64,000 nucleotides of DNA from an uncultured Syntrophaceae bacterium (GTDB lineage Bacteria; Desulfobacterota; Syntrophia; Syntrophales; UBA5619): assembly GCA_964637025.1 (NCBI GenBank), contig CAZWTL010000004.1:34508-98507 (forward strand). The letters are read 5' to 3'. This document shows, one piece after another, positions 1,590 through 16,379 of this stretch. The notes below the pieces were generated by a model, which worked only from the letters and a program-made list of their open reading frames with translations, made no database searches and had not been told where the DNA came from. Made by a program: the position numbers and the translations under genes. Positions within the stretch are counted from its first letter, which is position 1, and each line of letters begins with the position of its first letter.

Positions 1590-3068
1590 TTATCCGTTAT
1601 CGTCTTTCTTCCAGACGGTGGATGTCGCGCCGCCTCCGCGTCCGGTCCAGTCGGTATGGAAGTACTCGCCCCGGGGCCTGTCGACGCGCTGGTAGGTGTG
1701 CGCGCCGAAATAATCGCGCTGCGCCTGGAGCAGGTTCGCCGGCAGCGATCCGCGCCGGTATCCGTCGAAAAACGTCAGAGCGCTGGATATCGCCGGTGCC
1801 GGGATGCCCTTCCGGACCGCCTTGGAGACGACGCGCCGCCACCCTGCCTGCGCCGCGTCGATCTGCCCCGAAAAGTAGGGGTCCAGGAGCAGGTTCGTGA
1901 GTTGCGGGTTCCGTTCGAAGGCCTCCCTGATCCGGCCCAGGAAGGCCGACCGGATGATGCAGCCGCCCCGCCACATGAGCGCTATGCCGCCGTAGTTGAG
2001 ATTCCAGCCGTACGCCTTGGCGGCGGCGCGCATCAACATGTAGCCCTGGGTATACGAGATGAGCTTCGAAGCGTAGACCGCCTCTTCCAGATCACGGATG
2101 AACGCCTTCCGCTCCCCGGCGATACGGGACGGGGGTCCCGCAAGCACGGAGGACGCTGCGACGCGCTCGTCCTTCAGCGCTGAAAGCGCGCGGCCCAGCA
2201 CCGCCTCGACGATCATCGTCAGCGGGACGCCCTGTTCCAGCGCGGAAATGCCGGTCCATTTGCCCGTCCCCTTCTGTTCGGCGGCATCGAGGATCTTGTC
2301 CACCAGCGGCCGGCCGTCCTCGTCCCGGTATGCGAGGATGTCGCGCGTGATCTCGATCAGGTAAGAATCGAGCCGGCCCCGGTTCCAGTCCGCAAAGACC
2401 TCGTGCATCCGAGGCACCTTCATTGCGAGGCCTTCCCGCATCAGATGATACGCCTCGCCGATCAATTGCATGTCGCCGTATTCGATGCCGTTGTGAACCA
2501 TCTTGACATAGTGGCCCGCGCCGTTTTCCCCGACCCATTCGCAGCACGGCGCGCCGTCCGCCCGGGCTGCGATCCCCTGGAAAATCGCCTGGACGTGCCG
2601 CCACGCAGCTGGAGATCCCCCGGGCATGATCGATGGGCCGCGCCGCGCGCCCTCCTCGCCGCCCGAGACGCCGGTCCCGATATAGAGGAGCCCTTTCGAC
2701 TCGACCTGCGCAACGCGGCGGATCGTGTCGTTGTAATTCGAGTTGCCGCCGTCGATGATTACGTCCCCCCTGTCCAGAAGCGGGATCAGCTTGCCGATGA
2801 AAACGTCCACCGCCGGACCGGCCTGAACCATCAGCATCACGCGGCGGGGCCTTTTCAGCATGCCCGCCAATTCCCTGAGCGAATGGGCGCCCTGGATCCG
2901 CCTGCCCCGGGCCCCGCCGCCGAGAAATTCGTCCACCTTGGAGACGGTGCGGTTGAAAACCGCCACCGAAAAACCGTGGTCGTCCATGTTCAAAGCCAGG
3001 TTCTGCCCCATGACCGCCAAGCCGATCAGACCGATATCCGCCTTTTTCGCCGTTGCCTCTCTCTTCAA
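1590..3068 (-). CDS. gnd: NADP-dependent 6-phosphogluconate dehydrogenase (decarboxylating)
   Basis: IGLIGLAVMGQNLALN, GVSGGEEGA, GHYVKMVHNGIEYGDMQ, QRDYFGAHTY; TTG start. Confidence 0.97.
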   Translation of the reverse strand: MKREATAKKADIGLIGLAVMGQNLALNMDDHGFSVAVFNRTVSKVDEFLGGGARGRRIQGAHSLRELAGMLKRPRRVMLMVQAGPAVDVFIGKLIPLLDRGDVIIDGGNSNYNDTIRRVAQVESKGLLYIGTGVSGGEEGARRGPSIMPGGSPAAWRHVQAIFQGIAARADGAPCCEWVGENGAGHYVKMVHNGIEYGDMQLIGEAYHLMREGLAMKVPRMHEVFADWNRGRLDSYLIEITRDILAYRDEDGRPLVDKILDAAEQKGTGKWTGISALEQGVPLTMIVEAVLGRALSALKDERVAASSVLAGPPSRIAGERKAFIRDLEEAVYASKLISYTQGYMLMRAAAKAYGWNLNYGGIALMWRGGCIIRSAFLGRIREAFERNPQLTNLLLDPYFSGQIDAAQAGWRRVVSKAVRKGIPAPAISSALTFFDGYRRGSLPANLLQAQRDYFGAHTYQRVDRPRGEYFHTDWTGRGGGATSTVWKKDDNG

Positions 3069-3070
3069 AG

Positions 3071-4336
3071 TCAGCCTCCGCCCGACAGACGATAGAGGAT
3101 CTCTCCGGCGCGGTCCACGAACAGGACGCCGTCATCCTCGCGGCCGGCATAATCCTCGATCCGGATCTTGGCCGGGTCCATCCATCCCAGGCCGATCCGC
3201 CGACATCTCTCCTCCGGAATGGCCGTGGCCAGTACCACCCTGACGTCAGGCGTCTCGATCCCGTTTTCATAGCAGCCGGTTCCGCAAACGTGCGTCGAAT
3301 GGGCTGCGACGCCCCGGGGAACCTTGCAGAGGAGATCCGGCCGGGCGAGGAAATAGTCGCGCACGTGGTAGCCGATCCGTTCGATCTGATCCCCCCAGGA
3401 CGAGGAAAGCTCGTGGATGTGCGGGGCATAGACGATCAGCGTGCCGCCCGGCTCCACGACCTGCTCCAGCTTGTAGACCACCTTGCCGGCAGTCCAGATC
3501 TCGTCGTACATCCCAGGCGCCCGGCCAAGGACCGTCCGGAAAGCACGCTCCTTCTCCACGATGTGGTGCACCGCCGACAGATCCGCGGCGGCTGACCAGG
3601 CCTCTCTCGCGTCGCCGGTGAACAGGCCGCGCAACCGGGCCTTTGAATCAACCACCATCGCCAGGCAATGGATCGGCCGATCGATGAGCCCCATCGCCCT
3701 GTGGATCACCTCCCGTACGGGCGTCTCCTTCCGGCCGATGATCTTGCGGCAGGTCATCAGCGCCCCCAGCCAGTGGAAAAAATGGAGGAACTCGCCGCCG
3801 GAGACGCCGGGGAAAAGGTACTTGGCCCCCCCGGAAAACCCGGCCACCTCGTGGGGGAAGACCGGCCCGAGAATGACGAGCAGGTCGTAGTCGAAAACGG
3901 CCCGGTTGATGTCGATCGGCACCCGTTCCCGCAGCAGGCCCCCTGAAACCGCGTCCGATTCCTCCTCGGAGAGCTCGCCGATCCGCCGGAAGGTATCCGG
4001 CCGATCCCAGCGGTGACAGGAAAACGAGGACGACCGGAAGAGGCCCCCTGGGTCCGCGCCGCCGATTCCGTAAAGCGTCAGGATCTCCTCGGCCGCCATC
4101 ACGGGGTGGGTCCCCAGGGCCACCATGAAATCGAGTCTCTCGGCCCTGGATCCGATCACCTCCGCCAGCAGCCGGACCATCATCGGCAGGGGGCATGTCC
4201 TCGTTCCATCCGGGGTCAAAACCAGAACGCGTTTGCCCGCATACAGGGAAGGAGGGGTCTGGGCGGCGATGAGTTCCCGAACCTTCTGTTCCGTCAGGAC
4301 CGGTCCGTTCCCGCCGCTGCGTTCGATTCCGCTCAT
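3071..4336 (-). CDS. LarA-family (nickel-pincer cofactor) racemase/epimerase
   Basis: PDGTR, ALGTH, FPHEVAGFSGGAK, FHW, TAGK motifs match LarA catalytic positions; start moved to ATG 4336 (MSGIER). Confidence 0.85.
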   Translation of the reverse strand: MSGIERSGGNGPVLTEQKVRELIAAQTPPSLYAGKRVLVLTPDGTRTCPLPMMVRLLAEVIGSRAERLDFMVALGTHPVMAAEEILTLYGIGGADPGGLFRSSSFSCHRWDRPDTFRRIGELSEEESDAVSGGLLRERVPIDINRAVFDYDLLVILGPVFPHEVAGFSGGAKYLFPGVSGGEFLHFFHWLGALMTCRKIIGRKETPVREVIHRAMGLIDRPIHCLAMVVDSKARLRGLFTGDAREAWSAAADLSAVHHIVEKERAFRTVLGRAPGMYDEIWTAGKVVYKLEQVVEPGGTLIVYAPHIHELSSSWGDQIERIGYHVRDYFLARPDLLCKVPRGVAAHSTHVCGTGCYENGIETPDVRVVLATAIPEERCRRIGLGWMDPAKIRIEDYAGREDDGVLFVDRAGEILYRLSGGG

Positions 4337-4352
4337 GGACCCATGACCGCTG

Positions 4353-4865
4353 TCAGGGCATCTCCTCCCGCTGTCGGAGGAGACGTTCATAGACCGCCAG
4401 ATCCTGCCGGGAGAAACAGCAGAAGATCACCTCCGGAGGATCCGCCAGGGAGGCGTCCGCGTCCTTCACGGCATCCACGGCGATCCGGGCCGCCTCTTCG
4501 ATCGGATATCCGTAGATGCCCGTGCTGATGGAGGGGAACGCAATCGATCGCAAACCTTTCTCCACAGCGAGCGCCAACGATCTCCGGTAGCAGCTCGCCA
4601 GGAGTTCCGCCTCGCCCCTTCCGCCGCCGCGCCAGACCGGCCCCACCGTATGGATGACGAATCGGGCCGGTAGCCGGTATCCAAAGGTGATTTTGGCATC
4701 CCCCGTATCGCAGCCCCCGAGCTTCCGGCATTCCTCAAGAAGTTCGGGTCCGGCCGCGCGGTGGATGGCGCCGTCCACACCGCCTCCCCCGAGAAGCGAG
4801 CGGTTGGCCGCATTGACGATCGCATCCACGTTGAGCGTGGTGATGTCCGCTTGCACCGCTTTCAT
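4353..4865 (-). CDS. Macro-domain O-acetyl-ADP-ribose deacetylase (YmdB-like)
   Basis: [29 protein letters not shown] and [15 protein letters not shown]; start at [10 protein letters not shown]. Confidence 0.95.
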
Positions 4866-5294
4866 GGCTCCATCCTTCAGCTCCCCATGGTCCACCTCCG
4901 GTCCCTGGAATTGCCCACGAGAGGCAAAGGCCGAACCCGGCAGAACACCGTATGTTCTATTCTATTGCGTAATGCCAACCCCCTTTGTCAAGGAAAATGT
5001 TCCCGGACCCCTTCCCCGGCGGGAAGCTCCTCGATTTTGCATTGCATGTGGGAATGTTTCAGGAGAGGCCCGGGTCCGGAGCTCGTCGGCAGACCCTGCC
5101 GCTGAACGCGCACCGCTTGCGGAAGCAAGGAGGTCCGCCCCGGGCGCGCGAAGCGGGATGCGATCATCAAGGCGCCGGCGGTTTCGGCACCCCATCCGGC
5201 CTCAGCCGAAGGGCGGGAAATCCGCTGCCCTGTCGGGGCGTGCGGAGATTTCGCCTGCTGGTCCGACCTCAGCGCGGCGGCCGTTTGCTGGAAC

Positions 5295-6161
5295 TCATTT
5301 TGAAGGCGACGGCCGCGTGTTCCATCCGAGGACGGCAAGCTGCAGCCGGTCCGCCATCCGCGCGGGAAGCAGCCTGAAGACGGCGAGAACCGCATAGGTG
5401 CGAAGGGGCACGACACGGCGCACCGGCGGCCGGGGCCCCACGATCGCCCGTTCGACCGCCCGGGAGACGCATTCCGGCCCGACTCCGATCCAGTCGAATC
5501 CCTTGCGAATCCTTTCCACCCTTCGGAAAAGCCGGGCGTATGGAGAGTCCGGAGCGCCGCACTTGCCGATGGTCTTCATCGCGCGCTCGGCGAACTCCGT
5601 GCGGACGATTCCCGGTTCGATCAGAATCAGCCTGAGGCCGAACGGATAGAGTTCGCGGCGCAATGCGTCCGAAAGGGATTCAACGGCGTACTTCGAGGCG
5701 TTGTAGGCCCCCATGATCGGAAACGTGATCCGGCCGCCGGCGCTCCCGATGTTGACGATCCGTCCGGCTCCGCGCTCCCGCATTTTCGGCACAAAGGCCC
5801 TGGTCACGGCCATCAGGCCGAATACGTTTGCGTCGAACTGGGCGCGAAGATCGTTGTCGGAGATCATCTCCAGAGGTCCAAGCACGCCGTAACCCGCGTT
5901 GTTGACGAGGGCGTCGAGTCCATAGCCTTGGGTCCGCCTGTCCACCTCGGCCACGGCGGCGCTGATGGACCCGGCGTCCGTGACGTCCAGCACGAAGGTG
6001 TCGAGCGGCCCGTCTCCGGCCTCGGCCTTTAACGCACGGAGCGATTCGCTCCGGCGACCCGTCGCGAAAACGTGAAAGCCTCGATCCGCGAGATGAAGGG
6101 CGGTATGGCGGCCGATTCCCGCGGTCGCCCCCGTAATCAGTACAACCGGTCCCCGACCCAT
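5295..6161 (-). CDS. Classical short-chain dehydrogenase/reductase
   Basis: TGATAGIG, NNAG, YNASK; GGAGG upstream of ATG 6161; the long N-terminal extension in the ORF track is spurious. Confidence 0.9.
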   Translation of the reverse strand: MGRGPVVLITGATAGIGRHTALHLADRGFHVFATGRRSESLRALKAEAGDGPLDTFVLDVTDAGSISAAVAEVDRRTQGYGLDALVNNAGYGVLGPLEMISDNDLRAQFDANVFGLMAVTRAFVPKMRERGAGRIVNIGSAGGRITFPIMGAYNASKYAVESLSDALRRELYPFGLRLILIEPGIVRTEFAERAMKTIGKCGAPDSPYARLFRRVERIRKGFDWIGVGPECVSRAVERAIVGPRPPVRRVVPLRTYAVLAVFRLLPARMADRLQLAVLGWNTRPSPSK

Positions 6162-6277
6162 TTTCTCCATCCTCCACCCCTGAAGTGGAATGGCCTGTTG
6201 AAATAGCCCGCGACCCCATCCCTTCAGCCGCAAACGCCGAGGTCTAGGGTATCGTCTTCTGTGCCGGGCAGCCGATT

Positions 6278-7174
6278 TCAGACAACGTACAAGGCACATG
6301 CCGCCGAGAGGCCGGATCCGGCGGCGATGAACAGGATGCGGTCGCCCCGCTTCAAAAGCCCTTTTCCCGCCAGATCGTGGTAACCCAGTGTCAATGAGGA
6401 CGTATGGGGGTCTCCGTACGTCTCGCACAGATCCACCACCCGGGCGCGTCCCTTCGGGTCCACGAAGCGGGCGATTTCCGCGCCGAATCCCTTCGCGGGC
6501 TGAGACGTCACAATGAAATCGATGTGGTCCGGCTTGTCCGCCCCCGACGGGAACCACTCCCCGATCATGGCGGCGGTGAAATCGGAAAGCCGGTCACGGT
6601 AACCATCCTCGACGAGGTAGTCCATGCATTCCCTGCCCCGGCGGCCGTTCTCCGTCAGATTGACATGGGCGGAAAATCCGTGGCCGCCGCTGCCGGACGT
6701 CGCGCAATGGAAACGGGAAAATCCTTGACTATCCTCTTCAGAACGGGTGAGCAACACCGCGGCGGCCACGCTTTGAAACGGGAAATCGGGCCGGGGGGAC
6801 TTCGAGGGATGAATATCGCCCGACACAATGAGCGCCGATTGCGAAGAGCCCGCTTTGAAAAGGGTGTCGACAACCCTGGCTGCCGTGATGAGGCCGCAAT
6901 CCCCGTCGTTGATGTCGAAGGACAGCGTGGTTTTCCGCATCGGCTCCTCGGCGGTCGGGTCGAGGTTCATGCCCAGTTGCTGCTGGATCAGGGTCGCCAT
7001 CGCCGGTTCGATGATGTTGTCGTCGCGGAAGACCCCGACATTGATGAGAAGGTCGACATCCTCCATCGCCATCCGGGCCCGTGCCAGGCAATTCCGCGCG
7101 GCAAATACAGCCATGCCTACTGAACTCTGCGGGCCGTCCGGAGAGGCGAAAGAGGCCTTAATGATCGTACCCAT
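6278..7174 (-). CDS. Catalytically degenerate FabH/OleA-like ketosynthase subunit (LstB/PqsB-type partner)
   Basis: Thiolase-fold features (SFDINDGDCGL, ALIVSGD, GDRILFIAAGSG), but Asp/Ser/Asp sit at the Cys/His/Asn positions; retains ..IIEPAMA Glu; start overlaps the upstream gene's 3' end, GGAGG RBS. Confidence 0.8.
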   Translation of the reverse strand: MGTIIKASFASPDGPQSSVGMAVFAARNCLARARMAMEDVDLLINVGVFRDDNIIEPAMATLIQQQLGMNLDPTAEEPMRKTTLSFDINDGDCGLITAARVVDTLFKAGSSQSALIVSGDIHPSKSPRPDFPFQSVAAAVLLTRSEEDSQGFSRFHCATSGSGGHGFSAHVNLTENGRRGRECMDYLVEDGYRDRLSDFTAAMIGEWFPSGADKPDHIDFIVTSQPAKGFGAEIARFVDPKGRARVVDLCETYGDPHTSSLTLGYHDLAGKGLLKRGDRILFIAAGSGLSAACALYVV

Positions 7175-8204
7175 AACACGCCTCCAGCTGCCCGATCCGG
7201 GCGGATACAAAACCGATACCGATACCTGACGCCAGCGCCAGGAAGAGAATCTTCGAATGCCCCTTCAGACGCTTTTGGGAGAGATGATCGTGCAGCACCA
7301 TAAAATGGGACGTCGATGCGGTATTGCCGAATCGATCGATGCTGATCAGTGCTTCCGGCAGGACTTCCAGGTGTTTTGAACAGAGACTCAGCGCCGACTG
7401 GATGGCCCGGGTCGAGGTCTGGTGGGGGATGACATAGTCGAAATCCCTTCCCGTGAAACGATGCTTATCCATCATGAACCGAATGACCTGAGGCAGCCTC
7501 TTGATCGTTTCCCGGTGGATTTCAACCGCCTCGGCATACATGGCCAATCCGGGATTCTCATTGCTGGGCATGGCGAGACACAGATCGGCAAAACCGGCAA
7601 TGGTCAGGAAATCGCTGAAATCGATCCCTTCGCGTTCATCGGTCGTTCCATCCATGATCAATGCCACGCCCGAATCGCCGACGGTGAGCGACGCGAACTG
7701 GGGATCGATGGGTTCCCTGATCTCCTTGAGGGCCGTCTCGGAAATCGGAGTGATGCATTCTCCGCTGACAATCAGGCCATTCCGGACCGCTCCGGTCTTG
7801 ATCATATGGTTGAGGATATGGACGCCGGTGAGCATTCCTGCACATGCATTGGTGATTCCGAAACTCATCGTGTCGGACCGCATGCCCAGGCTTGTTTTCA
7901 AGAACTTGCTCATGTCCGGCTTCATCCAGAGATCGAGCCCCCCTTTGAAATTGCTGATCGAGGTGCAGATGATCACGTCCAGGTCCTTGGCGCCGTATCG
8001 GGACCTCCTCAGACAGTCTTCCGCTGCAGCCATCGCAAGGGTATAGGAATCCTGGCGATCGGACCTCCAGCGTCTCTCTTTCACGCCGGTCAGGGCCTCC
8101 AGGTCAAAAAACGGCTTGGCCGGCATCCGGTCGATCAATTCCTGCGTGGATACCGTGCGATCCGGCAGGAAAATCCCCATACTTTCGAATTGCCCCTTGA
8201 TCAT
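7158..8204 (-). CDS. 3-oxoacyl-ACP synthase III / OleA-like ketosynthase, active subunit
   Basis: Intact triad: C121 (SFGITNAC), H261 (VIPHQTS), N294 (FGNTAS). Confidence 0.9.
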   Translation of the reverse strand: MIKGQFESMGIFLPDRTVSTQELIDRMPAKPFFDLEALTGVKERRWRSDRQDSYTLAMAAAEDCLRRSRYGAKDLDVIICTSISNFKGGLDLWMKPDMSKFLKTSLGMRSDTMSFGITNACAGMLTGVHILNHMIKTGAVRNGLIVSGECITPISETALKEIREPIDPQFASLTVGDSGVALIMDGTTDEREGIDFSDFLTIAGFADLCLAMPSNENPGLAMYAEAVEIHRETIKRLPQVIRFMMDKHRFTGRDFDYVIPHQTSTRAIQSALSLCSKHLEVLPEALISIDRFGNTASTSHFMVLHDHLSQKRLKGHSKILFLALASGIGIGFVSARIGQLEACYGYDH

Positions 8205-8372
8205 GCATCCCTTCCTGTGTTCGCAACCGCGGGACCAAACGTCCCCGTTATGGTGCCGCGGGACTACAGGAAATCCCAGGCTCTGTCAAGAACATTTGGC
8301 TCCCGGGCTGGAAACGCGGACCGATTCAGAGTTTCCCGACGGCTCCGCGCCGTTCCGTTCCTGTTGTGTCCC

Positions 8373-8402
8373 TTGACCTTGAAAAGGTTTATTTCATATA
8401 CT
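8373..8402 (+). promoter_or_regulatory. sigma70-type promoter for the condensation-domain gene
   Basis: TTGACC-18 nt-TATACT, 64 nt upstream of the TTG start. Confidence 0.55.
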
Positions 8403-8465
8403 GCCGGACAGACCCATCGACCCCGATGGCGGCGTTGCCGTCCAGCGGAGAAAGGCTGACCAGGC

Positions 8466-9866
8466 TTGAAAAAGGTTCACAACGGGAGCCCCTGCTCCCC
8501 ACTGGATCCCGCCTCGGAGATCATCCTCTCCTGGGAACGTGAAGGCTTCCCCCAGACCGATTGGACCGCCTTTTCGTTCAAGGGATCGTGCGACATCGAC
8601 GCCCTGAAAGCCGCCCTTCAAGAGGCATTGAGGCGCCGACCGGTGTTTCGATCCCATCTTGTCGTTTCGAAACGCCTTGGGCTTCAAACCTACCGGTGGC
8701 GTATTGCTTCCGAACCGTGTCCGCTGGAGGTGACCGATCTTCGCGGGATAGGAAACCGGCCGGTCGATATGGAGCAGTGGACCCAACAGACCCTTGCCCC
8801 CGTTGTCGAGCGGTATGGGAATAATCTTGCAACGGAATATCCCGCCCGCTTCCTCCTGATGCTTCTGCCGGATGATCATGGCTGTTTTGCGGTGGTCTGG
8901 CATCACGCGTCGACGGACGGCGGCGGCCTGTATGATTTTTTACGCGGCCTCTTCAGCGAATACCATCGTCTGGTCAGGGGGGAAGATCCCGAATGGGCGA
9001 ATGTCGCGGGCCTTCATTCCCAGACGGGAAGGAGTGAGGAGATCGAGCCGATGCACTGGGGGCGGTTTTTCAAGGAAGCGGCCGTCCAGTTGATCCGCTA
9101 TCCCGTGCAGGCGTCCGCCCAGTTGATCAGCTCCCCTTCCGGCCCCCCGGAACGTCATGTAATCCGTTTTCGTTTCGACGACCCTCTTCTGCAGGAGGCC
9201 CTTCGCCAAAGGGCCAGACGCGACCAAGGCACCCTTTCGGACCTCTGTCTTGCGGCGGCCAAGTTGGCTCTCCAGGAATGGAACGAATACAGGGGGAACC
9301 CCCCGCGGGTGATGCACCACTGGCTCGCCGTGAATCAGCGGCTCCGCCAGTCGCGAATGCGGACGGATGCAACGAACAATCCCCTCATTGCGATCAACAT
9401 CCCGAGCCTGCCCGGTGACCGAAAAGATCCGCAAGCCCTGCTGCGGCACGTCATCGGCCACCGCAGGCGGATGCTCGCTGAAGGCTTTGACGTGGCGCTT
9501 TACCGTTTGGCGAACGGGATGACCCGTGCGGGCCGGGTGTTGCCGATCGCCATCAGGCACCCCGTTCTGAGGCGGATCATGGATCACCGGCTTTCTTTCT
9601 TCCTGTCCAATGTCGGGGTGGTTTGGCCCAGGATCGAAAACGGGAAAGCGACCGGAGAAACCGCCATCAGGGTCGTCGGCGATATGGAACTGGAGGACAT
9701 CCACAGCAGCATCGGGACGACGTTCAACAATCCGATCTGTCTGATCCTCCGGACGTTCCTGGGCCGGCTGTACTTTAACTTCACGACCGGAAGACATCGA
9801 ATTTCGGACGCGGATGGGCAGGCGTTCTCGCAACTCGTCGTGGATAAAGTGATGGCCTATCTGTGA
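8466..9866 (+). CDS. Stand-alone condensation-domain / CoA-dependent acyltransferase-fold protein
   Basis: HHxxxDG motif (VVWHHASTDGGG), N-terminal LKAALQEALRRRPVFRS helix, 466 aa with no A or T domain. Confidence 0.8.
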   Translation: MKKVHNGSPCSPLDPASEIILSWEREGFPQTDWTAFSFKGSCDIDALKAALQEALRRRPVFRSHLVVSKRLGLQTYRWRIASEPCPLEVTDLRGIGNRPVDMEQWTQQTLAPVVERYGNNLATEYPARFLLMLLPDDHGCFAVVWHHASTDGGGLYDFLRGLFSEYHRLVRGEDPEWANVAGLHSQTGRSEEIEPMHWGRFFKEAAVQLIRYPVQASAQLISSPSGPPERHVIRFRFDDPLLQEALRQRARRDQGTLSDLCLAAAKLALQEWNEYRGNPPRVMHHWLAVNQRLRQSRMRTDATNNPLIAINIPSLPGDRKDPQALLRHVIGHRRRMLAEGFDVALYRLANGMTRAGRVLPIAIRHPVLRRIMDHRLSFFLSNVGVVWPRIENGKATGETAIRVVGDMELEDIHSSIGTTFNNPICLILRTFLGRLYFNFTTGRHRISDADGQAFSQLVVDKVMAYL

Positions 9867-9908
9867 GGAGGCAAAGGGGGACGACGCGCAGGAGGGCGTT
9901 GACGGTCC

Positions 9909-10751
9909 TCAATCCTTCAGAGCCCCCATCGTCAAGCCCTGGACGATGGACTTGCGGACGAAAAACGCAAAGACCGAGACGGGGAGCACGATCAGGGTCG
10001 CTGCCGCACCGATACCGGCCCAGTCGATCTTCCCGTAGGAGATGAAGTTGTAGACCGCCACCGGAACGGTCTTGGTCCTAGGACCCGAGAGGATCAGCGA
10101 AAAGAGGAACTGGTTCCACGAGAAGATGAAGGACATGATCGCCGAGGTGGCGATCCCGTTGCGTACGAGGGGCAGCACGATCCTGAGGAAGCTCTGCCAG
10201 CGGGAACAGCCGTCGATCATCGCCGCATCCTCCAGTTCGCCCGGCATGCTCTCGAAAAACGAGACCATCAGCCAGATCACCATCGGCATCGTGATGATCA
10301 GGTGGGTGATCGTGAGCGCCGTAAAGGTGTCGATCAGCCTCAGATAACGAAAGATGATGTACCAGGGCAGCAGGTAGCTCACGAACGGCGTCATCCGGGC
10401 CACGAGGATGAGTATGCCGATCTTGCCCTGCCGGTACTTCGCGATGGAGTAGGCCGCCGGCAGCCCCAGCACCAGCGAGATGGCCGTGGCGAGCGTGGCG
10501 ATCACGAGGCTGTTCATCAGATAACGGAAAAAATGGTGCTGCTGGAAAACCGCCCTGAAGTTCTCCAGCGTGGGCATAAAAATGAATTCCGGGGGGTAGG
10601 AGATGTTCTGGACGCCGGTCTTGAGTCCGGTGAGGATCATCCAGACGAAGACGAAGAGGGGCGGCGCGCACAACGCAACGGCTCCGGCGTAAAAGAGGGT
10701 CTTTCTGACGACGTCGCCCATCCGGCTTCCCGGCATGTTCATCCACCCCAA
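9909..10751 (-). CDS. Carbohydrate ABC transporter permease (MalG-like)
   Basis: EAA loop ELEDAAMIDGCS; multiple TM segments; exact start uncertain. Confidence 0.92.
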   Translation of the reverse strand: MGWMNMPGSRMGDVVRKTLFYAGAVALCAPPLFVFVWMILTGLKTGVQNISYPPEFIFMPTLENFRAVFQQHHFFRYLMNSLVIATLATAISLVLGLPAAYSIAKYRQGKIGILILVARMTPFVSYLLPWYIIFRYLRLIDTFTALTITHLIITMPMVIWLMVSFFESMPGELEDAAMIDGCSRWQSFLRIVLPLVRNGIATSAIMSFIFSWNQFLFSLILSGPRTKTVPVAVYNFISYGKIDWAGIGAAATLIVLPVSVFAFFVRKSIVQGLTMGALKD

Positions 10752-10910
10752 TCTCTGAAAAACCTGATCCGGCCCTGACGGTCCTTTTCCGGCCTAGCGC
10801 CTCCTGGCCCCGCTCCGCATTCAGCCCTCTCACCTCTTCCCCGCGACCGTTTCCGCGCCCCAAGGCTTCCGGAACATCTCCCCGCAATCCGGTTTATGCC
10901 GTCCCTCTGC

Positions 10911-11837
10911 TCAGATCGCGACCGCGCTTCGCCTGAAGCGGTTCATGACCACATTGAACACGAGCACGATCAGAAACACGACCACCATCAGGGCCGATCC
11001 GTAGCCGGCCTTGAAGAAGCTGAACCCGACATTGTAGGAATAAAGGTAGAGCGTCTCGGACGCAATACCCGGCCCGCCCTGGGTGATCGTGTAGATCATG
11101 TCGAACTCCTTGAGGTTGTCCAGGGAGCGGAGCATGAGCGCCGCAACCAGCACGGGCCGGATCAGCGGCAGCGTGATGTAGCCGAAGATCTGCAGGGCGT
11201 TCGCCCCGTCGATCCGGGCCGCCTCGTACGGATCCTGGGGTAGGGACTTGAGTCCCGCCAGTACGATCAGCGTGATCATCGGGGTCCATTTCCAGACGTC
11301 CACCATCACCAGGGCAGGGATCACCATGGTTTCGCTGCTGACCCAAAGGCTCGAAGGCAGCCCCACACTCGTGAGCAGATAGTTGAGCACCCCGATTTCG
11401 GGATTCAGCATGATCCTCCAGATCAGCGCGACGGCAACCGGCGTCGCGGCGAAGGGGATGATGTAAATCGCCTGAACCAGTTCGCTTCCCTTGAAGGCGC
11501 GGTTGAAGTAGAGCGCGATCATCAGGCCCAGGACCAGTTCCAGGGCCAGGCTCGCGCCGCTGAAACAGACCATGACCTTCACGCCGTTCCAGACGCGCTC
11601 GTCGCCGAAGAGTTCAACGAAATTTTCGAGGCCGATGAAGCGGGGCTGTCCCAGACCGATGGTCCATTTGGTGAAGGTCAGATAGAGGTTGAAGGCGATG
11701 GGGAGGATGACGATCAGAAACAGGACCGCCACCGCCGGCGCCGGGAAAAAAAGGGGCTGGCGGCGGTCAACGAACCGGGAAATGGAGGCCAGAAACTGCT
11801 TCATAGACCCAAGGCCGATCGGGGCAGTGCCATGCAT
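10911..11837 (-). CDS. Carbohydrate ABC transporter permease (MalF-like)
   Basis: YEAARIDGAN EAA loop, DVWKWTPM; alternative start ATG 11804. Confidence 0.92.
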   Translation of the reverse strand: MHGTAPIGLGSMKQFLASISRFVDRRQPLFFPAPAVAVLFLIVILPIAFNLYLTFTKWTIGLGQPRFIGLENFVELFGDERVWNGVKVMVCFSGASLALELVLGLMIALYFNRAFKGSELVQAIYIIPFAATPVAVALIWRIMLNPEIGVLNYLLTSVGLPSSLWVSSETMVIPALVMVDVWKWTPMITLIVLAGLKSLPQDPYEAARIDGANALQIFGYITLPLIRPVLVAALMLRSLDNLKEFDMIYTITQGGPGIASETLYLYSYNVGFSFFKAGYGSALMVVVFLIVLVFNVVMNRFRRSAVAI

Positions 11838-11861
11838 CGAGGCTGTTCAAAATCCAGGGGT

Positions 11862-11901
11862 AAAAGCGGGACCGCCCGCTGCGTTCCAAGCGGGCAGTCC
11901 C
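11862..11901 (-). terminator. Intra-operonic stem-loop after the binding-protein gene (partial terminator/mRNA stabiliser)
   Basis: GGGACUGCCCGCU/AGCGGGCGGUCCC 13-bp stem with one G-U pair on the minus transcript, followed by UUUU. Confidence 0.6.
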
Positions 11902-11915
11902 CCAAACCCGCAGGG

Positions 11916-13223
11916 TTACCTTTCCATCTTCTTGTCCATCAGTTCGGCCGCCTTCCTGGCCGCCTCCGCCACGTCCTTCCCCTCGATCGCGGCCACAATC
12001 ACCTGGCCGGTGATGTCGCGGATCTCGGGGACGTTGATCACCGGCGGGTTCCACTGGCCCTGACCGATATCAAAGGACTTCATGGTGGCCGCGGTCCAGT
12101 CAGGCTGCTTGTCCCCCGCCTTGTATTCCTTGGATTTCCAGGAGGAGGCCCGCCCCGACGGCACCCCGGCGAGAAGCGCGCCCAGACAGTTCTCCTTGTT
12201 GGTCGCCCACTGGATGAAGAGCCACGCCGCCTTCTGTTTCTCGGGCGGGCTCGTCTTGCCGATCGACAGGCTCCAGTTGGAAACATGGGGCAGCCGAAGC
12301 CCTTTCGGTCCGGCCGGGATCACCGCATAACCGACCTTGCCGGCGACCTTGGACTCCTTGGGATTCTCGTAGAGGGCCTTGAAGACGTTCGCGTCGTAGA
12401 TCATGGCCGCCTTCCCTTCCATGAAGATGGAGGTGCTCTCCGCCCAGTGGAGCATCGTGCCTCCCTGCGGACCGTAGAACCTCAGGAGGTCGCCGTAGAA
12501 CTTGAAGGCCGCAATGTCCTCGGGGGATGCGAGGTTCGACTGGCCCTGGGCGTTGGTCCAGGAGCCGCCGAAGGTGTAGAGAAAATCGACCCACTGGGAG
12601 GTCGCCGCCGCTCCCTTCCCGCGCAGCGTGATGCCGACCATCTTCCTGCCATCCACCTCCTTGCCATGAAAATACTTCGCGACCTGTTCGAGTTCCTTCA
12701 TGGTGGAGGGGACCTTCTGTTTGAATTTCGCGAAGAGATCCTTGCGGTAGGCCAGAAGCGACGTCTCGGCGTTGATCACGATGCCGATCTGCTTGCCTTC
12801 CACCGAGGAGGCCTTCGCGAAGCTGGCGAAGAAATCCTTCGGATCCCAGGCCGGATCGGTCAAGGCGGGATCCGCGATGTAGGCATCCAGGGGCTGGAGC
12901 CATCCCGCCTTCCAGTAATGGAGGTCATCCTGGCCCGGCATGATCATGTACCCGTCCACCTTCCCGCCGGCGTTGAGCTCGATCGTCCGCTTGTTCCGGT
13001 ACTGATCCTCCGGAAAGGTTTCCATGACCACCTTGATGCCGGTCAGTCTCTCGAACTCGGGAATCTTCGGCTCGATAAAGGTCGTAAAAGGATGCTTGTT
13101 CATCAGAAAACGGATTTCGGTTCCCTGGCACTGCTTCCAATCCACTGCAGCAAAAGCCGTGGCCGAAGCCGCCCCTGCGCAGAGCAGGACCGCCAACACA
13201 ACGTACACCTTTGCTCTTTTCAT
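11916..13223 (-). CDS. Sugar ABC transporter substrate-binding protein
   Basis: Signal peptide, SBP_bac_1-like architecture, GAGGAGG RBS. Confidence 0.92.
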   Translation of the reverse strand: MKRAKVYVVLAVLLCAGAASATAFAAVDWKQCQGTEIRFLMNKHPFTTFIEPKIPEFERLTGIKVVMETFPEDQYRNKRTIELNAGGKVDGYMIMPGQDDLHYWKAGWLQPLDAYIADPALTDPAWDPKDFFASFAKASSVEGKQIGIVINAETSLLAYRKDLFAKFKQKVPSTMKELEQVAKYFHGKEVDGRKMVGITLRGKGAAATSQWVDFLYTFGGSWTNAQGQSNLASPEDIAAFKFYGDLLRFYGPQGGTMLHWAESTSIFMEGKAAMIYDANVFKALYENPKESKVAGKVGYAVIPAGPKGLRLPHVSNWSLSIGKTSPPEKQKAAWLFIQWATNKENCLGALLAGVPSGRASSWKSKEYKAGDKQPDWTAATMKSFDIGQGQWNPPVINVPEIRDITGQVIVAAIEGKDVAEAARKAAELMDKKMER

Positions 13224-13317
13224 GGAACGCCTCCTCGGTTCAATGGGTTTGGAAATTAGCCCCTCCGCCCCGCGGTCCCGGACCGCACAGGGGCGTCATT
13301 CGCCGTTCACCCGTCTA

Positions 13318-14418
13318 TCACACGATGGTTCGTGAAGTATCCTTGTCGAAAAGGTGGGTCTTGGCCATCCTGAAGTCCACCTCCAGGACCTGTCCCACGG
13401 TCAGCGGGCGTTCGGGCACCTCCATCCGAGCCACGATCGAGTGGACGCCGCAGGTCAGATAGACGAAGATCTCCGATCCCAGGGTTTCCACCACGTCCGC
13501 CCGCGCCGTGACGGTGTTGCCCTCGCTCCTGCCCGCCGCGGGGTGCGCCGCGATGTCTTCGGGCCGCAAGCCGAAGATCACCGGCCGGCCGGCATACGGA
13601 TCGAGCCGCGCGTGAAACGCCTCCGGCACCCGGACCCGGAACGCCCCGGCATCGACGTGCCATCCCCCCTCCTCTCGGATCAGCGTCGCCTCGATGAAAT
13701 TCATGGCCGGCGAGCCGATGAAGCCCGCCACGAAACGGTTCGCCGGCTGGCCGTAAACCTCCAACGGCACCCCCGTCTGCTGCAGCGCGCCGTTGTGCAG
13801 GATGAAGATCCGGTCCGCCATGGTCATGGCCTCGACCTGATCGTGGGTGACATAGATGATCGTGGCGCCCAGGCGACGGTGGAGCTTGCTGATCTCGGCC
13901 CGCATCGCGACCCGCAGCTTCGCGTCGAGGTTGGAAAGCGGCTCGTCGAAGAGAAAAACCTTGGGTTTGCGGACGATGGCCCGCCCGACCGCCACCCGCT
14001 GACGCTGTCCTCCCGACAGCTCCTTCGGCTTGCGCTCCAGCAACTCCTGGATGCCGAGGATATCGGCTGCCTCCTGGACCCTGGCTTCGATCTCCTCACG
14101 GGCGAACTTCCGAATCTTGAGCCCGAATCCGAGATTGTCCCGGACGTTCATGTGGGGATAGAGGGCATAGTTCTGGAAAACCATGGCGATGTCGCGGTCC
14201 TTGGGCGCCATGTCGTTGACGAGGGTGTCTCCGATGAAGATTTCACCGGAGGTGATCGTCTCCAGACCCGCGATCATCCGCAGCGCCGTGGTCTTTCCGC
14301 ACCCGGAGGGTCCGACCAGCACCGCGAATTCACGGTCCCGAATCTCGATGCTCAGGTGGTCGACCGCCGTGACCGCACCGAACCGTTTCACGACGTTCTT
14401 CAGGATCACATTGGCCAT
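13318..14418 (-). CDS. Sugar ABC ATP-binding protein (MalK/UgpC family)
   Basis: GPSGCGKT, LSGGQRQRVA, LFDEPLSNLD, C-terminal TOBE region. Confidence 0.96.
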   Translation of the reverse strand: MANVILKNVVKRFGAVTAVDHLSIEIRDREFAVLVGPSGCGKTTALRMIAGLETITSGEIFIGDTLVNDMAPKDRDIAMVFQNYALYPHMNVRDNLGFGLKIRKFAREEIEARVQEAADILGIQELLERKPKELSGGQRQRVAVGRAIVRKPKVFLFDEPLSNLDAKLRVAMRAEISKLHRRLGATIIYVTHDQVEAMTMADRIFILHNGALQQTGVPLEVYGQPANRFVAGFIGSPAMNFIEATLIREEGGWHVDAGAFRVRVPEAFHARLDPYAGRPVIFGLRPEDIAAHPAAGRSEGNTVTARADVVETLGSEIFVYLTCGVHSIVARMEVPERPLTVGQVLEVDFRMAKTHLFDKDTSRTIV

Positions 14419-14449
14419 GTCTGTCGCCTCTTATCGGATGGGATCCGTC

Positions 14450-15304
14450 CTAGATGGCGAAGGAGGAAAAACCTCCGTCCACCGGAACCACGACGCCGGT
14501 CACAAAGGCGGAGGCGTCGGAAAGCAGCCACACCAGCGTGCCGATCAGGTCGCACGGCTCGCCGAATCGGCCCATGGGCGTGTGGGCGATCACCTGGCGG
14601 GCGCGGGGCAGAAACCCGCCCGTCTCGGGATCGATGTGGAGGAAACGCAGTTGTTCCGTCAGAAAGAAACCCGGGGCCAGCGCGTTCACGCGGACGCCCG
14701 CATGGGCGAAATGGACCGCCAGCCACCGCGTAAAGTTGCTCACGGCCGCCTTTGCGGCGGAATAGGCGGCCACCTTGGTCAGCGGCACCAAGGCGCTCAT
14801 CGAGGAGATGTTGACAATCGCCCCCCGGCCGCGTGACGCCATCTCCCGGGCAAAGGTCTGGGTCGTCAGGAACGTCCCCATGAAATTGAGGTTGAAAACG
14901 TGCCGGAAACCCTCCGGGTCCAGATCGAAGAAGGACTGGCCGGGCACGCTCCCCGTTGTGCGGGGCCCCTCGAATTCGAAAGCGGTGCTGCCCCGTGGGT
15001 CGTTTCCGCCGGCGCCGTTGATCAGAAAATCAGGGGCTCCCCAGACGGCGGAGACGTTGTCGTGACACTCCCGAAGCCGGCCCGTATCCAGCACGTCGCA
15101 CTGCAGCGCGAGGGCGCTCCCTCCGGCCCGGACAATCGCCTGCGCCCGGTTTTCGGCCTTTTCGAGGCTGATGTCGAGAACCGCCACCCTCGCGCCCATG
15201 GCGCCCAGCGCGTCCGCCATCGCGCCGCAGAGATCTCCGCCGCCGCCGGTGACGACCCCAACCCTTCCCTCCAGATCGAATTGTCGCAGGATTTCGCCCT
15301 TCAT
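14450..15304 (-). CDS. SDR oxidoreductase, D-mannonate oxidoreductase (UxuB-type SDR)-like
   Basis: TGGGGDL, NGAGGNDP, YSAAKAAVSNFTRWLAVHF, NALAPGFFLTEQ; start at MKGEILRQF. Confidence 0.75.
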   Translation of the reverse strand: MKGEILRQFDLEGRVGVVTGGGGDLCGAMADALGAMGARVAVLDISLEKAENRAQAIVRAGGSALALQCDVLDTGRLRECHDNVSAVWGAPDFLINGAGGNDPRGSTAFEFEGPRTTGSVPGQSFFDLDPEGFRHVFNLNFMGTFLTTQTFAREMASRGRGAIVNISSMSALVPLTKVAAYSAAKAAVSNFTRWLAVHFAHAGVRVNALAPGFFLTEQLRFLHIDPETGGFLPRARQVIAHTPMGRFGEPCDLIGTLVWLLSDASAFVTGVVVPVDGGFSSFAI

Positions 15305-15326
15305 GCCGCAGCCCCCGATTCCGCCT

Positions 15327-16379
15327 CTAAAGCCCCCCCAGTCCTTCAGCAAAGGTTGTGACCTCGCCCCAGAAGGGCATGGAGACGGAGCAGCCGTGGC
15401 GGGCCACCACCATGGCGCCGCAGGCGTTTCCGAGCCGGGCCGCCCGCCGGAGGTCCCAACCCTTGACGTAACCATAGAGGAATCCCGCCCCGAAGGCGTC
15501 GCCGGCGCCGAGGATATTCTGCACCTTGACCGGAAAGCCCGGCACATCCTCGGCCTTTTCGCCCCGGCGATGTATCCGGCAACCCGCCTCTCCCCGCTTC
15601 TCGACGACAATCCCGGGGCCTTGCCCCAGCATGAAGTCCACGCATGCGGCCGTCTCCCCGCTTACACGGACATCGCTCTGCTGGGAATGGGTCATCCGGA
15701 CGGATCGTGCATCGTTCAGCATCACGGCGTTGATTTCATCCTCTGTGCCTATTGCGACATCGGTGAAAGGCAGGACGGAACGGATGGAGGTCCCGAAGGC
15801 GCGCGGGTCATGCCACAGCTTCGGCCGGAAATCCAGATCGAGCACAACAGCGGTCCCGACCTTCCGGGCAATCTCCACCGCGCAGAGGGTGGCGCTCCGG
15901 CTCGGCTCCTGGCTCAGGTTCGTGCCAGCAAACTGGAACACGCGGCTCCGGGCGATCGGAGCGGCCAGAACATCATCGATCGTCAGCGCGATGTCCGCGC
16001 AGTTGTCACGGTAGAAGACCAGCGGAAATTTGTCGGGCGGTTCGATGCCCAGGATGACGGCGCCCGTCTGCCGCCCCGGCTTCCGGGGACAAAAACGGAT
16101 ATCGACCCCTTCCTCGGTCAGGAAATGGGCCACGAAGTCGCCAACGGGATCCTCGCCAAAGGCGGTCAGAAGCGCCGATTTCAATCCCAGACGGCGGCAT
16201 CCCACGCTCATGTTGGTGGGGGAACCGCCCACATAGGCGGCAAAGCCGCGGATATGGACGAAATCGGCCCCGACATCGTTGCTGTACAGGTCGATGCCGG
16301 AACGGCCCATGTGAAACGTGTCGTACGCGCGCCTTATCCGGCGGGGATTCTGGGACACCATTCCACGATTTCCCGTCAT
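15327..16379 (-). CDS. iolC: PfkB kinase, 5-dehydro-2-deoxygluconokinase-like
   Basis: MGRSGIDLY, YVGGSPTNMSVG, FYRDNCAD, LDLDFRP, GAGDAF; start 16379 or 16361. Confidence 0.75.
   Translation of the reverse strand: MTGNRGMVSQNPRRIRRAYDTFHMGRSGIDLYSNDVGADFVHIRGFAAYVGGSPTNMSVGCRRLGLKSALLTAFGEDPVGDFVAHFLTEEGVDIRFCPRKPGRQTGAVILGIEPPDKFPLVFYRDNCADIALTIDDVLAAPIARSRVFQFAGTNLSQEPSRSATLCAVEIARKVGTAVVLDLDFRPKLWHDPRAFGTSIRSVLPFTDVAIGTEDEINAVMLNDARSVRMTHSQQSDVRVSGETAACVDFMLGQGPGIVVEKRGEAGCRIHRRGEKAEDVPGFPVKVQNILGAGDAFGAGFLYGYVKGWDLRRAARLGNACGAMVVARHGCSVSMPFWGEVTTFAEGLGGL

Follow-up and report, generated by a model that had tools for sequence, protein, structure and literature searches.

Four neighbouring genes in a 64,000-nt stretch of DNA from an uncultured Syntrophaceae bacterium (GenBank assembly GCA_964637025.1, contig CAZWTL010000004.1, positions 34,508 to 98,507; the whole stretch is called the window, and positions are counted from its first letter) behave, on genome comparison, as a single horizontally acquired cassette that has moved as a unit. 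They encode a coupled pair of beta-ketoacyl-ACP synthase III (KAS-III; ACP, acyl carrier protein) enzymes, KAS-alpha and KAS-beta; a short-chain dehydrogenase/reductase (SDR); and a stand-alone protein of the condensation fold, the C protein. An initial annotation, drawn from the letters of the window, had placed such a block at 5295-9866, and listing of open reading frames (ORFs) together with profile searches recovers all four genes there (Table 1). Our favoured interpretation, which we hold tentatively and put a little short of even, is that the cassette, acquired horizontally, specifies a form of the OleA-type 'head-to-head' lipid pathway that does without OleC. Its product would probably be a branched lipid not yet described, likely a 2-alkyl-3-hydroxy acid that is subsequently esterified or dehydrated.

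The case for transfer as a unit comes from three comparisons. In a survey of 36 species genomes of the family, 16 of them of the same genus, both the KAS pair and the C protein occur only in this genome. The corresponding site is empty in a same-genus genome (locus L129, on contig C11 of genome G034), where a LarA homologue matching window positions 2778-4297 is followed, after ~110 nt, by an ABC permease gene matching the window from 9907 onwards; the segment at ~4340-9906 is therefore an insertion. The same four genes recur in the same order, at 74-77% nucleotide identity, in two loci with an unrelated genomic context (L008 and L103), the only other full four-gene loci found, which represent one lineage (90% nucleotide identity to each other, flanks included) and are bordered by TctA/TctC and ABC-F genes on one side and by a B12 radical S-adenosylmethionine (SAM) gene and PlsY on the other. 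Nucleotide homology between L008 and the window is limited to window positions 5314-6172 and 6278-9854, that is, to exactly the four genes, with unrelated flanks. Because the grouping recurs in an unrelated context it is not a chance juxtaposition, and the grouping suggested by the initial annotation is borne out as one transferred unit. Nucleotide composition was left out of this argument: the block has 56-60% G+C and the left flank 65%, but the genome mean is 59%.

Relatives of the cassette genes were collected by scanning species-representative genomes with a KAS-alpha alignment, which yielded 80 loci, 42 of them in Nocardia; a scan of genome contigs with the C protein as single query made no finds, and a 29-row C alignment was too diverse to serve as seed. 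In the Nocardia loci the two KAS genes come first, ahead of an AMP-binding gene, whose product reaches 608 bits on NF006754 and 510 on the model for the olefin beta-lactone synthetase, and of a 3beta-hydroxysteroid dehydrogenase (3beta-HSD)-type reductase whose best match is the OleD model; judged by these gene assignments, they are the nltABCD nocardiolactone cluster. KAS-alpha of the window belongs to one family with the nltA genes of all 42, and identity to the proteins of a Nocardia locus carrying NltC and NltD is 45% for KAS-alpha against NltA and 37% for KAS-beta against NltB.

The catalytic residues follow the same division of labour as in the characterised enzymes. The KAS-alpha triad of Cys121 (NACAG), His261 (PHQTS) and Asn294 (GNTAS) is invariant across 21 homologues. 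KAS-beta is without the Cys-His-Asn triad, its His and Asn positions being replaced (TSQP, GDPHT), and in an alignment of 16 beta subunits the residues at the former Cys, His and Asn positions vary; Glu56 (counted from the start MGTIIK, in the motif 'N-I-x-E-P') aligns with E57 of NltB and is invariant in all 16. The two KAS genes are adjacent in each of the 88 loci examined. NltA and NltB are active only jointly, as a ~72-kDa heterodimer that condenses acyl-coenzyme A (acyl-CoA) in vitro, and NltB is truncated, lacks the triad and requires E57 (10.1101/856955); E60 of LstB, from the lipstatin enzyme, is likewise essential (PMC12141560). The window pair thus shows the features of a heterodimeric OleA-type thiolase, namely the alpha triad, a short triad-less beta subunit that keeps the Glu, and homology combined with adjacency, and its assignment in the initial annotation to the lipstatin/nocardiolactone (LstAB/NltAB) type holds. 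On homology to these characterised enzymes and conservation of their catalytic residues, the heterodimer, with Glu56 as base, would couple two fatty acyl-CoA molecules without decarboxylation, in a Claisen condensation that yields a 2-alkyl-3-keto acyl product.

It seems very unlikely that the heterodimer performs some other KAS-III chemistry (PqsBC-like, or pyrone- or resorcinol-forming) with no head-to-head condensation. Such a role would suit a KAS-alpha whose sequence resembles FabH (E 1e-17) at least as closely as solved OleA (E 1e-9, partial) and which has weak NCBIfam matches to DarB/StlD, but it sits poorly with the 45% identity to an NltA that has been characterised experimentally, with a beta-subunit Glu that is family-wide and specific to the OleA mechanism, and with the company kept by distant members of the same KAS family. 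These more distant relatives stand in full clusters that also hold OleD and an OleBC fusion (in Smithella, Spirochaetota and Desulfobacterales), while others adjoin separate OleD and OleC genes. One Smithella genome (L039, 8001-11971) has two tandem KAS-alpha/KAS-beta pairs ahead of the OleBC fusion and OleD.

The enzymes that ordinarily follow this condensation are missing, both beside the block and in the genome. The genome (3.07 Mb in 147 contigs, 98.6% complete, 2.3% contaminated) holds one KAS pair and one C gene. Its best score for OleC/NltC on NF006754 is 154 bits against a cut-off of 478, whereas positive controls reach 608 bits (Nocardia) and 678 bits (the Syntrophaceae OleBC fusion of L042); the OleC-type matches are no higher than those in E. 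coli and other control genomes, and tblastn with OleC/NltC finds 24-26% identity. On NF042422, the model for OleD/NltD, the genome reaches 100.6 bits at best (cut-off 580; 204 for NltD itself), and for OleB the best tblastn match has 59 bits, with 30% identity along 121 aa, against 439-599 bits for true OleB domains. ORF and profile searches of the window reveal no AMP-binding, alpha/beta-hydrolase or ACP gene adjoining the block, and profile searches of the window no adjoining nonribosomal peptide synthetase (NRPS) or polyketide synthase (PKS) gene; the genome has six PP-binding genes, none of them on the window's contig. The lack of a beta-lactone synthetase, first noted for the window, accordingly extends to this nearly complete genome, and the search for oleC, oleB and ACP genes elsewhere, which the initial annotation had proposed as a check, found neither OleC nor OleB, nor OleD, and carrier-protein genes only on other contigs.

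An ordinary ole, nlt or lst pathway with its remaining genes scattered through the genome, which the initial annotation had named as grounds for abandoning its reading, is therefore scarcely credible. A draft of 147 contigs could hide genes, and generic AMP-binding and NAD-epimerase genes are present, but completeness is high and the OleC, OleD and OleB scores lie at the level of E. coli and the control genomes, nowhere near true members; we rejected a full ole pathway elsewhere in the genome on these scores. Since the genome is without a beta-lactone synthetase, OleB and OleD, the end product would be neither a beta-lactone nor an olefin.

In the favoured pathway the reductive step falls to the SDR. 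This is a classical-type SDR (PF00106, E 1e-47) with the motifs TGATAGIG (TGxxxGxG), NNAG and GSAGG...YNASK (Ser-Tyr-Lys), and its closest solved relatives are 17beta-HSD1 (E 2e-37) and retinol-dehydrogenase-type enzymes, reductases of lipophilic ketones. This kinship is compatible with reduction of a 2-alkyl-3-keto acid or of a ketone derived from it. Position, co-transfer and kinship together suggest that the SDR would stand in for the missing OleD/NltD and convert the 3-keto group to a hydroxyl, yielding a mycolate-like 2-alkyl-3-hydroxy acid.

The C protein matches PF00668 (E 8e-10) and keeps the canonical HHxxxDG motif intact (WHHASTDGGG); across 29 homologues H147 and D151 do not vary, and H146 varies little if at all. 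Its AlphaFold model (predicted local distance difference test score, pLDDT, 92; predicted template modelling score, pTM, 0.91) has AzeD (8s6l) as top Foldseek match (template modelling score, TM, 0.72-0.77; E 1e-24), followed by NRPS C domains, the acetyltransferase TRI3 and PapA5 (TM 0.62-0.72). There were 297 PDB matches at E <= 0.001, and all 50 among the matches listed are of the C superfamily or a related CoA-dependent acyltransferase fold. A profile search with the C family finds NRPS C and E domains best (E 2.5e-10) and PapA5 at E 1.5e-4, with AzeD unmatched at E <= 1, so that by sequence the family is classed only as a generic member of the C superfamily. By its scores on their models the C protein does not belong to the PapA5 or WS/DGAT families (22.8 bits on TIGR02946 against 310; 16-20 bits on PapA5 models against 396-716); it may nevertheless, judging from the predicted structure, work like those enzymes. 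The carrier-protein, NRPS or PKS partner usual for the condensation superfamily is absent from beside the block, and no PP-binding gene lies on the contig. As the third step of the favoured pathway the C protein would form an ester, either by acylating the new hydroxyl or by moving the branched acyl group to an acceptor, the kind of product that the initial annotation had suggested.

A different role for the C protein, that of an AzeD-like dehydratase, is suggested by the structural comparison. Following reduction by the SDR, loss of water would give 2-alkyl-2-enoic acids or a decarboxylated alkene, and the cassette would amount to a ketosynthase-ketoreductase-dehydratase series assembled from unusual parts. 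AzeD heads the Foldseek matches of the window protein and also of its Nocardia counterpart (below), and the aze pathway offers a parallel, where the SDR ketoreductase AzeE acts ahead of AzeD, a stand-alone C protein that removes water from a free substrate (10.64898/2026.07.17.738954); by this analogy dehydration may be the role of the C protein. Identity to AzeD is however 15%, the family profile missed the AzeD sequence, and the motif here is the canonical HHxxxDG and not the PHxxxDG of AzeD; the first rank of AzeD may simply reflect that it, too, stands alone and has a comparably open conformation. The C-fold partners in Nocardia and Gammaproteobacteria, moreover, adjoin MmpL transporters. 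We regard the dehydratase as distinctly unlikely; the canonical motif and the MmpL neighbours of the C-fold analogues favour acyl transfer.

Of the 88 related loci, each with an alpha/beta pair, only those of one Syntrophales/Smithellaceae sub-lineage have the C gene close by. In each of the 8 loci examined that hold a C orthologue at >=60% identity, a KAS pair lies within 4 kb of it. Three arrangements occur: divergent and adjacent (the window, L008, L103 and L006/L007), convergent (L005), or separated from the pair by ArsC alone (L115) or by several genes (L116/L117). Between the pair and the C gene in L116 (2055-5488) and L117 (1126-4472) lie ArsC, a small ORF, a CapK/PaaK-like adenylating enzyme (a CapK-like ligase) and an M48 peptidase; an M48 peptidase is also found divergently upstream of the KAS pair in L013-L015, and in L012 a phospholipase-B-like gene occupies the place where the C gene would sit. 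In trees of KAS-alpha and of the C protein the linked loci are scattered over the Smithellaceae-type clade, and C genes that lack linkage fall into a nested subclade, a pattern that argues for an old KAS-C linkage with later losses. Orthologues of the SDR (72% identity) occur only in L008 and L103, beside the same KAS pair; the best matches in 10 related Smithella-type genomes have 34-47% identity. By their distribution, the SDR and C protein are accessories of a sub-lineage, yet they were transferred together with the pair. The co-occurrence that the initial annotation expected of the SDR and C genes with KAS pairs is thus upheld within narrow limits, for the C gene in one Syntrophales/Smithellaceae sub-lineage and for the SDR in the window and L008/L103; it is not general, since most related pairs lack both genes and the C family also occurs without KAS pairs.

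Several observations weigh against a joint pathway. Most related KAS pairs have neither SDR nor C gene nearby; many loci of the Smithellaceae-type KAS clade (13 rows), and some in spirochaetes, hold the pair alone. Among eight Smithella-type genomes that have the pair with no neighbouring C gene, seven are without an intact C orthologue (one of these, L016, keeps a 110-aa C-gene remnant beside the pair) and one carries it on another contig, so that the pair can evidently work alone. C-family members at <=58% identity have no KAS pair within 7-10 kb in any of the 11 loci of sufficient length (L001-L004, L104, L106, L107, L109, L111-L113). The C gene itself stands outside the KAS operon, with its own promoter-like site on the plus strand (TTGACC-18-TATACT at 8373-8402, a consensus match only), and the best structural match of its product is a dehydratase. 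Finally, OleA-type enzymes release the free beta-keto acid, and a thioester donor for transfer of the branched chain is therefore not evident. In a possible variant route the condensation product would decarboxylate spontaneously, and the resulting long-chain ketone would be reduced to a secondary alcohol and then esterified in PapA5-like or wax-synthase-like fashion.

Some of these observations suit another account, in which only the KAS pair is functional, its 2-alkyl-3-keto acids decarboxylate spontaneously to long-chain ketones, and the SDR and C genes are unrelated co-travellers. Besides the solitary pairs, the C genes found away from KAS pairs, the divergent orientation of the C gene and the lack of this SDR in all 10 genomes searched, it can draw on the ketones that OleA yields when expressed alone (PMC7064751). 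It leaves unexplained, however, that the block common to two unrelated contexts is exactly these four genes, that they were inserted jointly in a family otherwise without the pair and the C protein, that the closer C orthologues keep near a KAS pair through three arrangements, and that C-fold partners recur in Nocardia and Gammaproteobacteria. We consider the pair-only account rather unlikely.

Stand-alone C-fold proteins flank NltAB-type pairs well beyond the Syntrophales, in 41 of 42 Nocardia loci and 11 of 12 gammaproteobacterial loci. The Ketobacter-like gammaproteobacterial operon has the order C-like protein, MmpL, KAS-alpha, KAS-beta and OleD-like reductase (11/12 loci); its C-like protein matches PF00668, PapA_C and WS_DGAT_C, has a Cys in place of the catalytic His (SCxPIDG), and meets the window C family in profile comparison (hhalign) at 95% probability and E 2e-8. 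An OleC-class match is absent in six of seven of these gammaproteobacterial genomes. In Nocardia a ~395-aa protein with the motif FHGVMDG follows directly after nltD and is itself followed by MmpL (41/42 loci); its AlphaFold model (pLDDT 81) has the condensation fold, with AzeD as best match (TM 0.73). Mycobacterial PapA acyltransferases likewise adjoin MmpL transporters. The paper that defined nltABCD mentions neither an MmpL nor an acyltransferase (10.1101/856955).

A single 'KAS-associated C clade' was considered and rejected: the proteins of the Smithellaceae-type, gammaproteobacterial and Nocardia loci resemble generic C domains at least as closely as they resemble one another (hhalign probabilities among the groups of 95%, 62% and 39%, with Pfam E-values of similar order), and we claim no common origin for the three groups. 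The repeated pairing of C-fold proteins with NltAB-type thiolases nonetheless argues, from gene neighbourhoods, for a functional association. A broader proposal, which we find possible though on balance somewhat doubtful, is that NltAB-type thiolases have, next to beta-lactones and olefins, a second output not yet described: in at least three phyla, together with a reductase and a stand-alone C-fold enzyme and often with MmpL, they would build and export esterified 2-alkyl-3-hydroxy ('mycolate-like') lipids without an adenylating enzyme, and the window would hold the minimal, mobile form in an anaerobe.

B12-binding radical SAM genes stand beside NltAB-type KAS pairs in six loci (L008 9996-11432; L034 9819-11663; L039, L041 and L042 at ~4500-5990; L046 10237-14724), with three tandem copies in L046. 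They may encode lipid-tailoring enzymes, for example methylases.

Set against known systems, the window pair resembles NltA/NltB (nltABCD, Nocardia brasiliensis) and LstA/LstB (Streptomyces toxytricini) in being an adjacent, coupled KAS-III pair with an alpha triad and a short beta subunit bearing the Glu. It differs in having no NltC/LstC, no 3beta-HSD-type reductase NltD/LstD, and no NRPS or formyltransferase, but instead a classical SDR and a stand-alone HHxxxDG protein, and in its host, an anaerobic Syntrophales-like bacterium that appears to come from bioreactors and digesters. The initial annotation had counted a stand-alone C-domain protein among the lipstatin genes, which is wrong, as lipstatin uses an NRPS (10.1101/856955). 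With OleABCD (Xanthomonas campestris and Shewanella, with OleBC fusions in Actinobacteria) the window shares what appears from homology to be the same first-step chemistry, but OleA is a homodimer and the window enzyme a predicted heterodimer, and OleB, OleC and OleD are absent from its genome.

Two further systems offer analogies for the later steps. In AzeE/AzeD (azetidomonamide, Pseudomonas aeruginosa) an SDR ketoreductase likewise has as its partner a stand-alone protein of the condensation family, working on a free substrate, but there the pathway is an NRPS one with an alkaloid substrate, and the window block has no NRPS. The mycolate system employs the condensase Pks13, the classical-SDR ketoreductase CmrA, acyl transfer to trehalose and export by MmpL3, and PapA/MmpL pairs mark other lipid loci of mycobacteria. 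The proposed window route has the same logic of chain condensation, beta-keto reduction by a classical SDR and transfer of the branched acyl group by an enzyme of the CoA-dependent acyltransferase fold, and the Nocardia and gammaproteobacterial relatives carry MmpL as mycolate and PapA loci do. The window, however, has no MmpL and no homology to Pks13, its condensation would be non-decarboxylative, and kinship of its C protein with PapA5 or WS/DGAT is at the superfamily level only.

Table 1. Coordinates of the cassette, its surroundings and C-fold loci elsewhere
Feature	Location	Strand	Size	Remarks
SDR gene	5295-6170	-	291 aa	PF00106
KAS-beta gene, degenerate KAS-III, NltB/LstB type	6278-7174	-	~298 aa	start MGTIIK
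KAS-alpha gene, catalytic KAS-III, NltA/LstA type	7158-8204	-		NACAG, PHQTS, GNTAS
Stand-alone condensation-fold (C) gene	8466-9866	+	466 aa	PF00668; divergent from KAS genes
Divergent intergenic region	8205-8465		261 nt	two conserved promoter-like blocks
Insertion relative to same-genus genome	~4340-9906		~5.6 kb	macro-domain gene plus four cassette genes
Macro-domain gene	4353-4895	-		PF01661, E 6e-50; between SDR and LarA operon
Ketobacter-like gammaproteobacterial loci	L009, L024-L032, L036, L038: ~4250-10950 in each
Nocardia example, L058	C-fold protein ~13016-14210; MmpL ~14200-16324			same in 40 other Nocardia loci

The SDR lies in an over-long ORF (5295-6557, 420 aa) whose domain begins only at residue 138; its start was placed at MEKMGRG, as codon-position G+C is coding-like only from there on. 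The KAS-beta start precedes the KAS-alpha stop, a gene overlap of 17 nt, and good Shine-Dalgarno sequences lie upstream of the KAS-alpha and SDR genes. On the KAS side of the divergent intergenic region the minus strand carries TTGACA at 8284-8289 with TGTAGT 15 nt downstream (again a consensus match only), and this block and that of the C gene are both retained in the window, L008 and L103; a shared operator was considered and rejected, conservation being limited to the two promoter-like blocks.

The cassette is flanked on the left by the LarA/gnd/kinase operon and on the right by the sugar-type ABC permease genes. The macro-domain gene lies within the 5.6-kb insertion but outside the block common to L008 and L103. 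A 247-aa plus-strand ORF at 4654-5397 was discarded as probably not a gene (no Pfam match, codon-position G+C not coding-like); the true gene lies opposite it, on the minus strand, and is that of the macro-domain protein. The LarA-like gene (3071-4390, minus strand) likely starts at ~4336 rather than at 4390, and same-genus homology stops at ~4300. Because the insertion sits directly upstream of the LarA gene and on the same strand, transcription of the KAS/SDR operon may run on into the LarA-gnd-kinase operon. A run labelled 'METAGENOMIC RNA-Seq' was considered as expression data for window positions 3000-12000 and set aside, for it consists of one 21-kb contig of even, DNA-like depth, and contig-based runs cannot reveal transcription.

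What appears new here is that a head-to-head condensation of the OleA type would proceed apart from OleBCD, in the company of a classical SDR and a stand-alone C-fold enzyme. Such condensation has so far been known only as the entry to olefins and to beta-lactones (lipstatin, nocardiolactone), and published surveys retained only those OleA homologues with an adjacent OleB, OleC or OleD, 251 of 920 (PMC7064751). The delimited mobile cassette described here, and the wider set of loci, present the same condensing enzyme without its usual partners and beside condensation-fold proteins. If the cassette is functional, it would suggest that marine hydrocarbon degraders and the Syntrophales of anaerobic digesters make branched lipids of a class so far unrecognised, and that a C-fold/MmpL pair has been overlooked in Nocardia nocardiolactone clusters.

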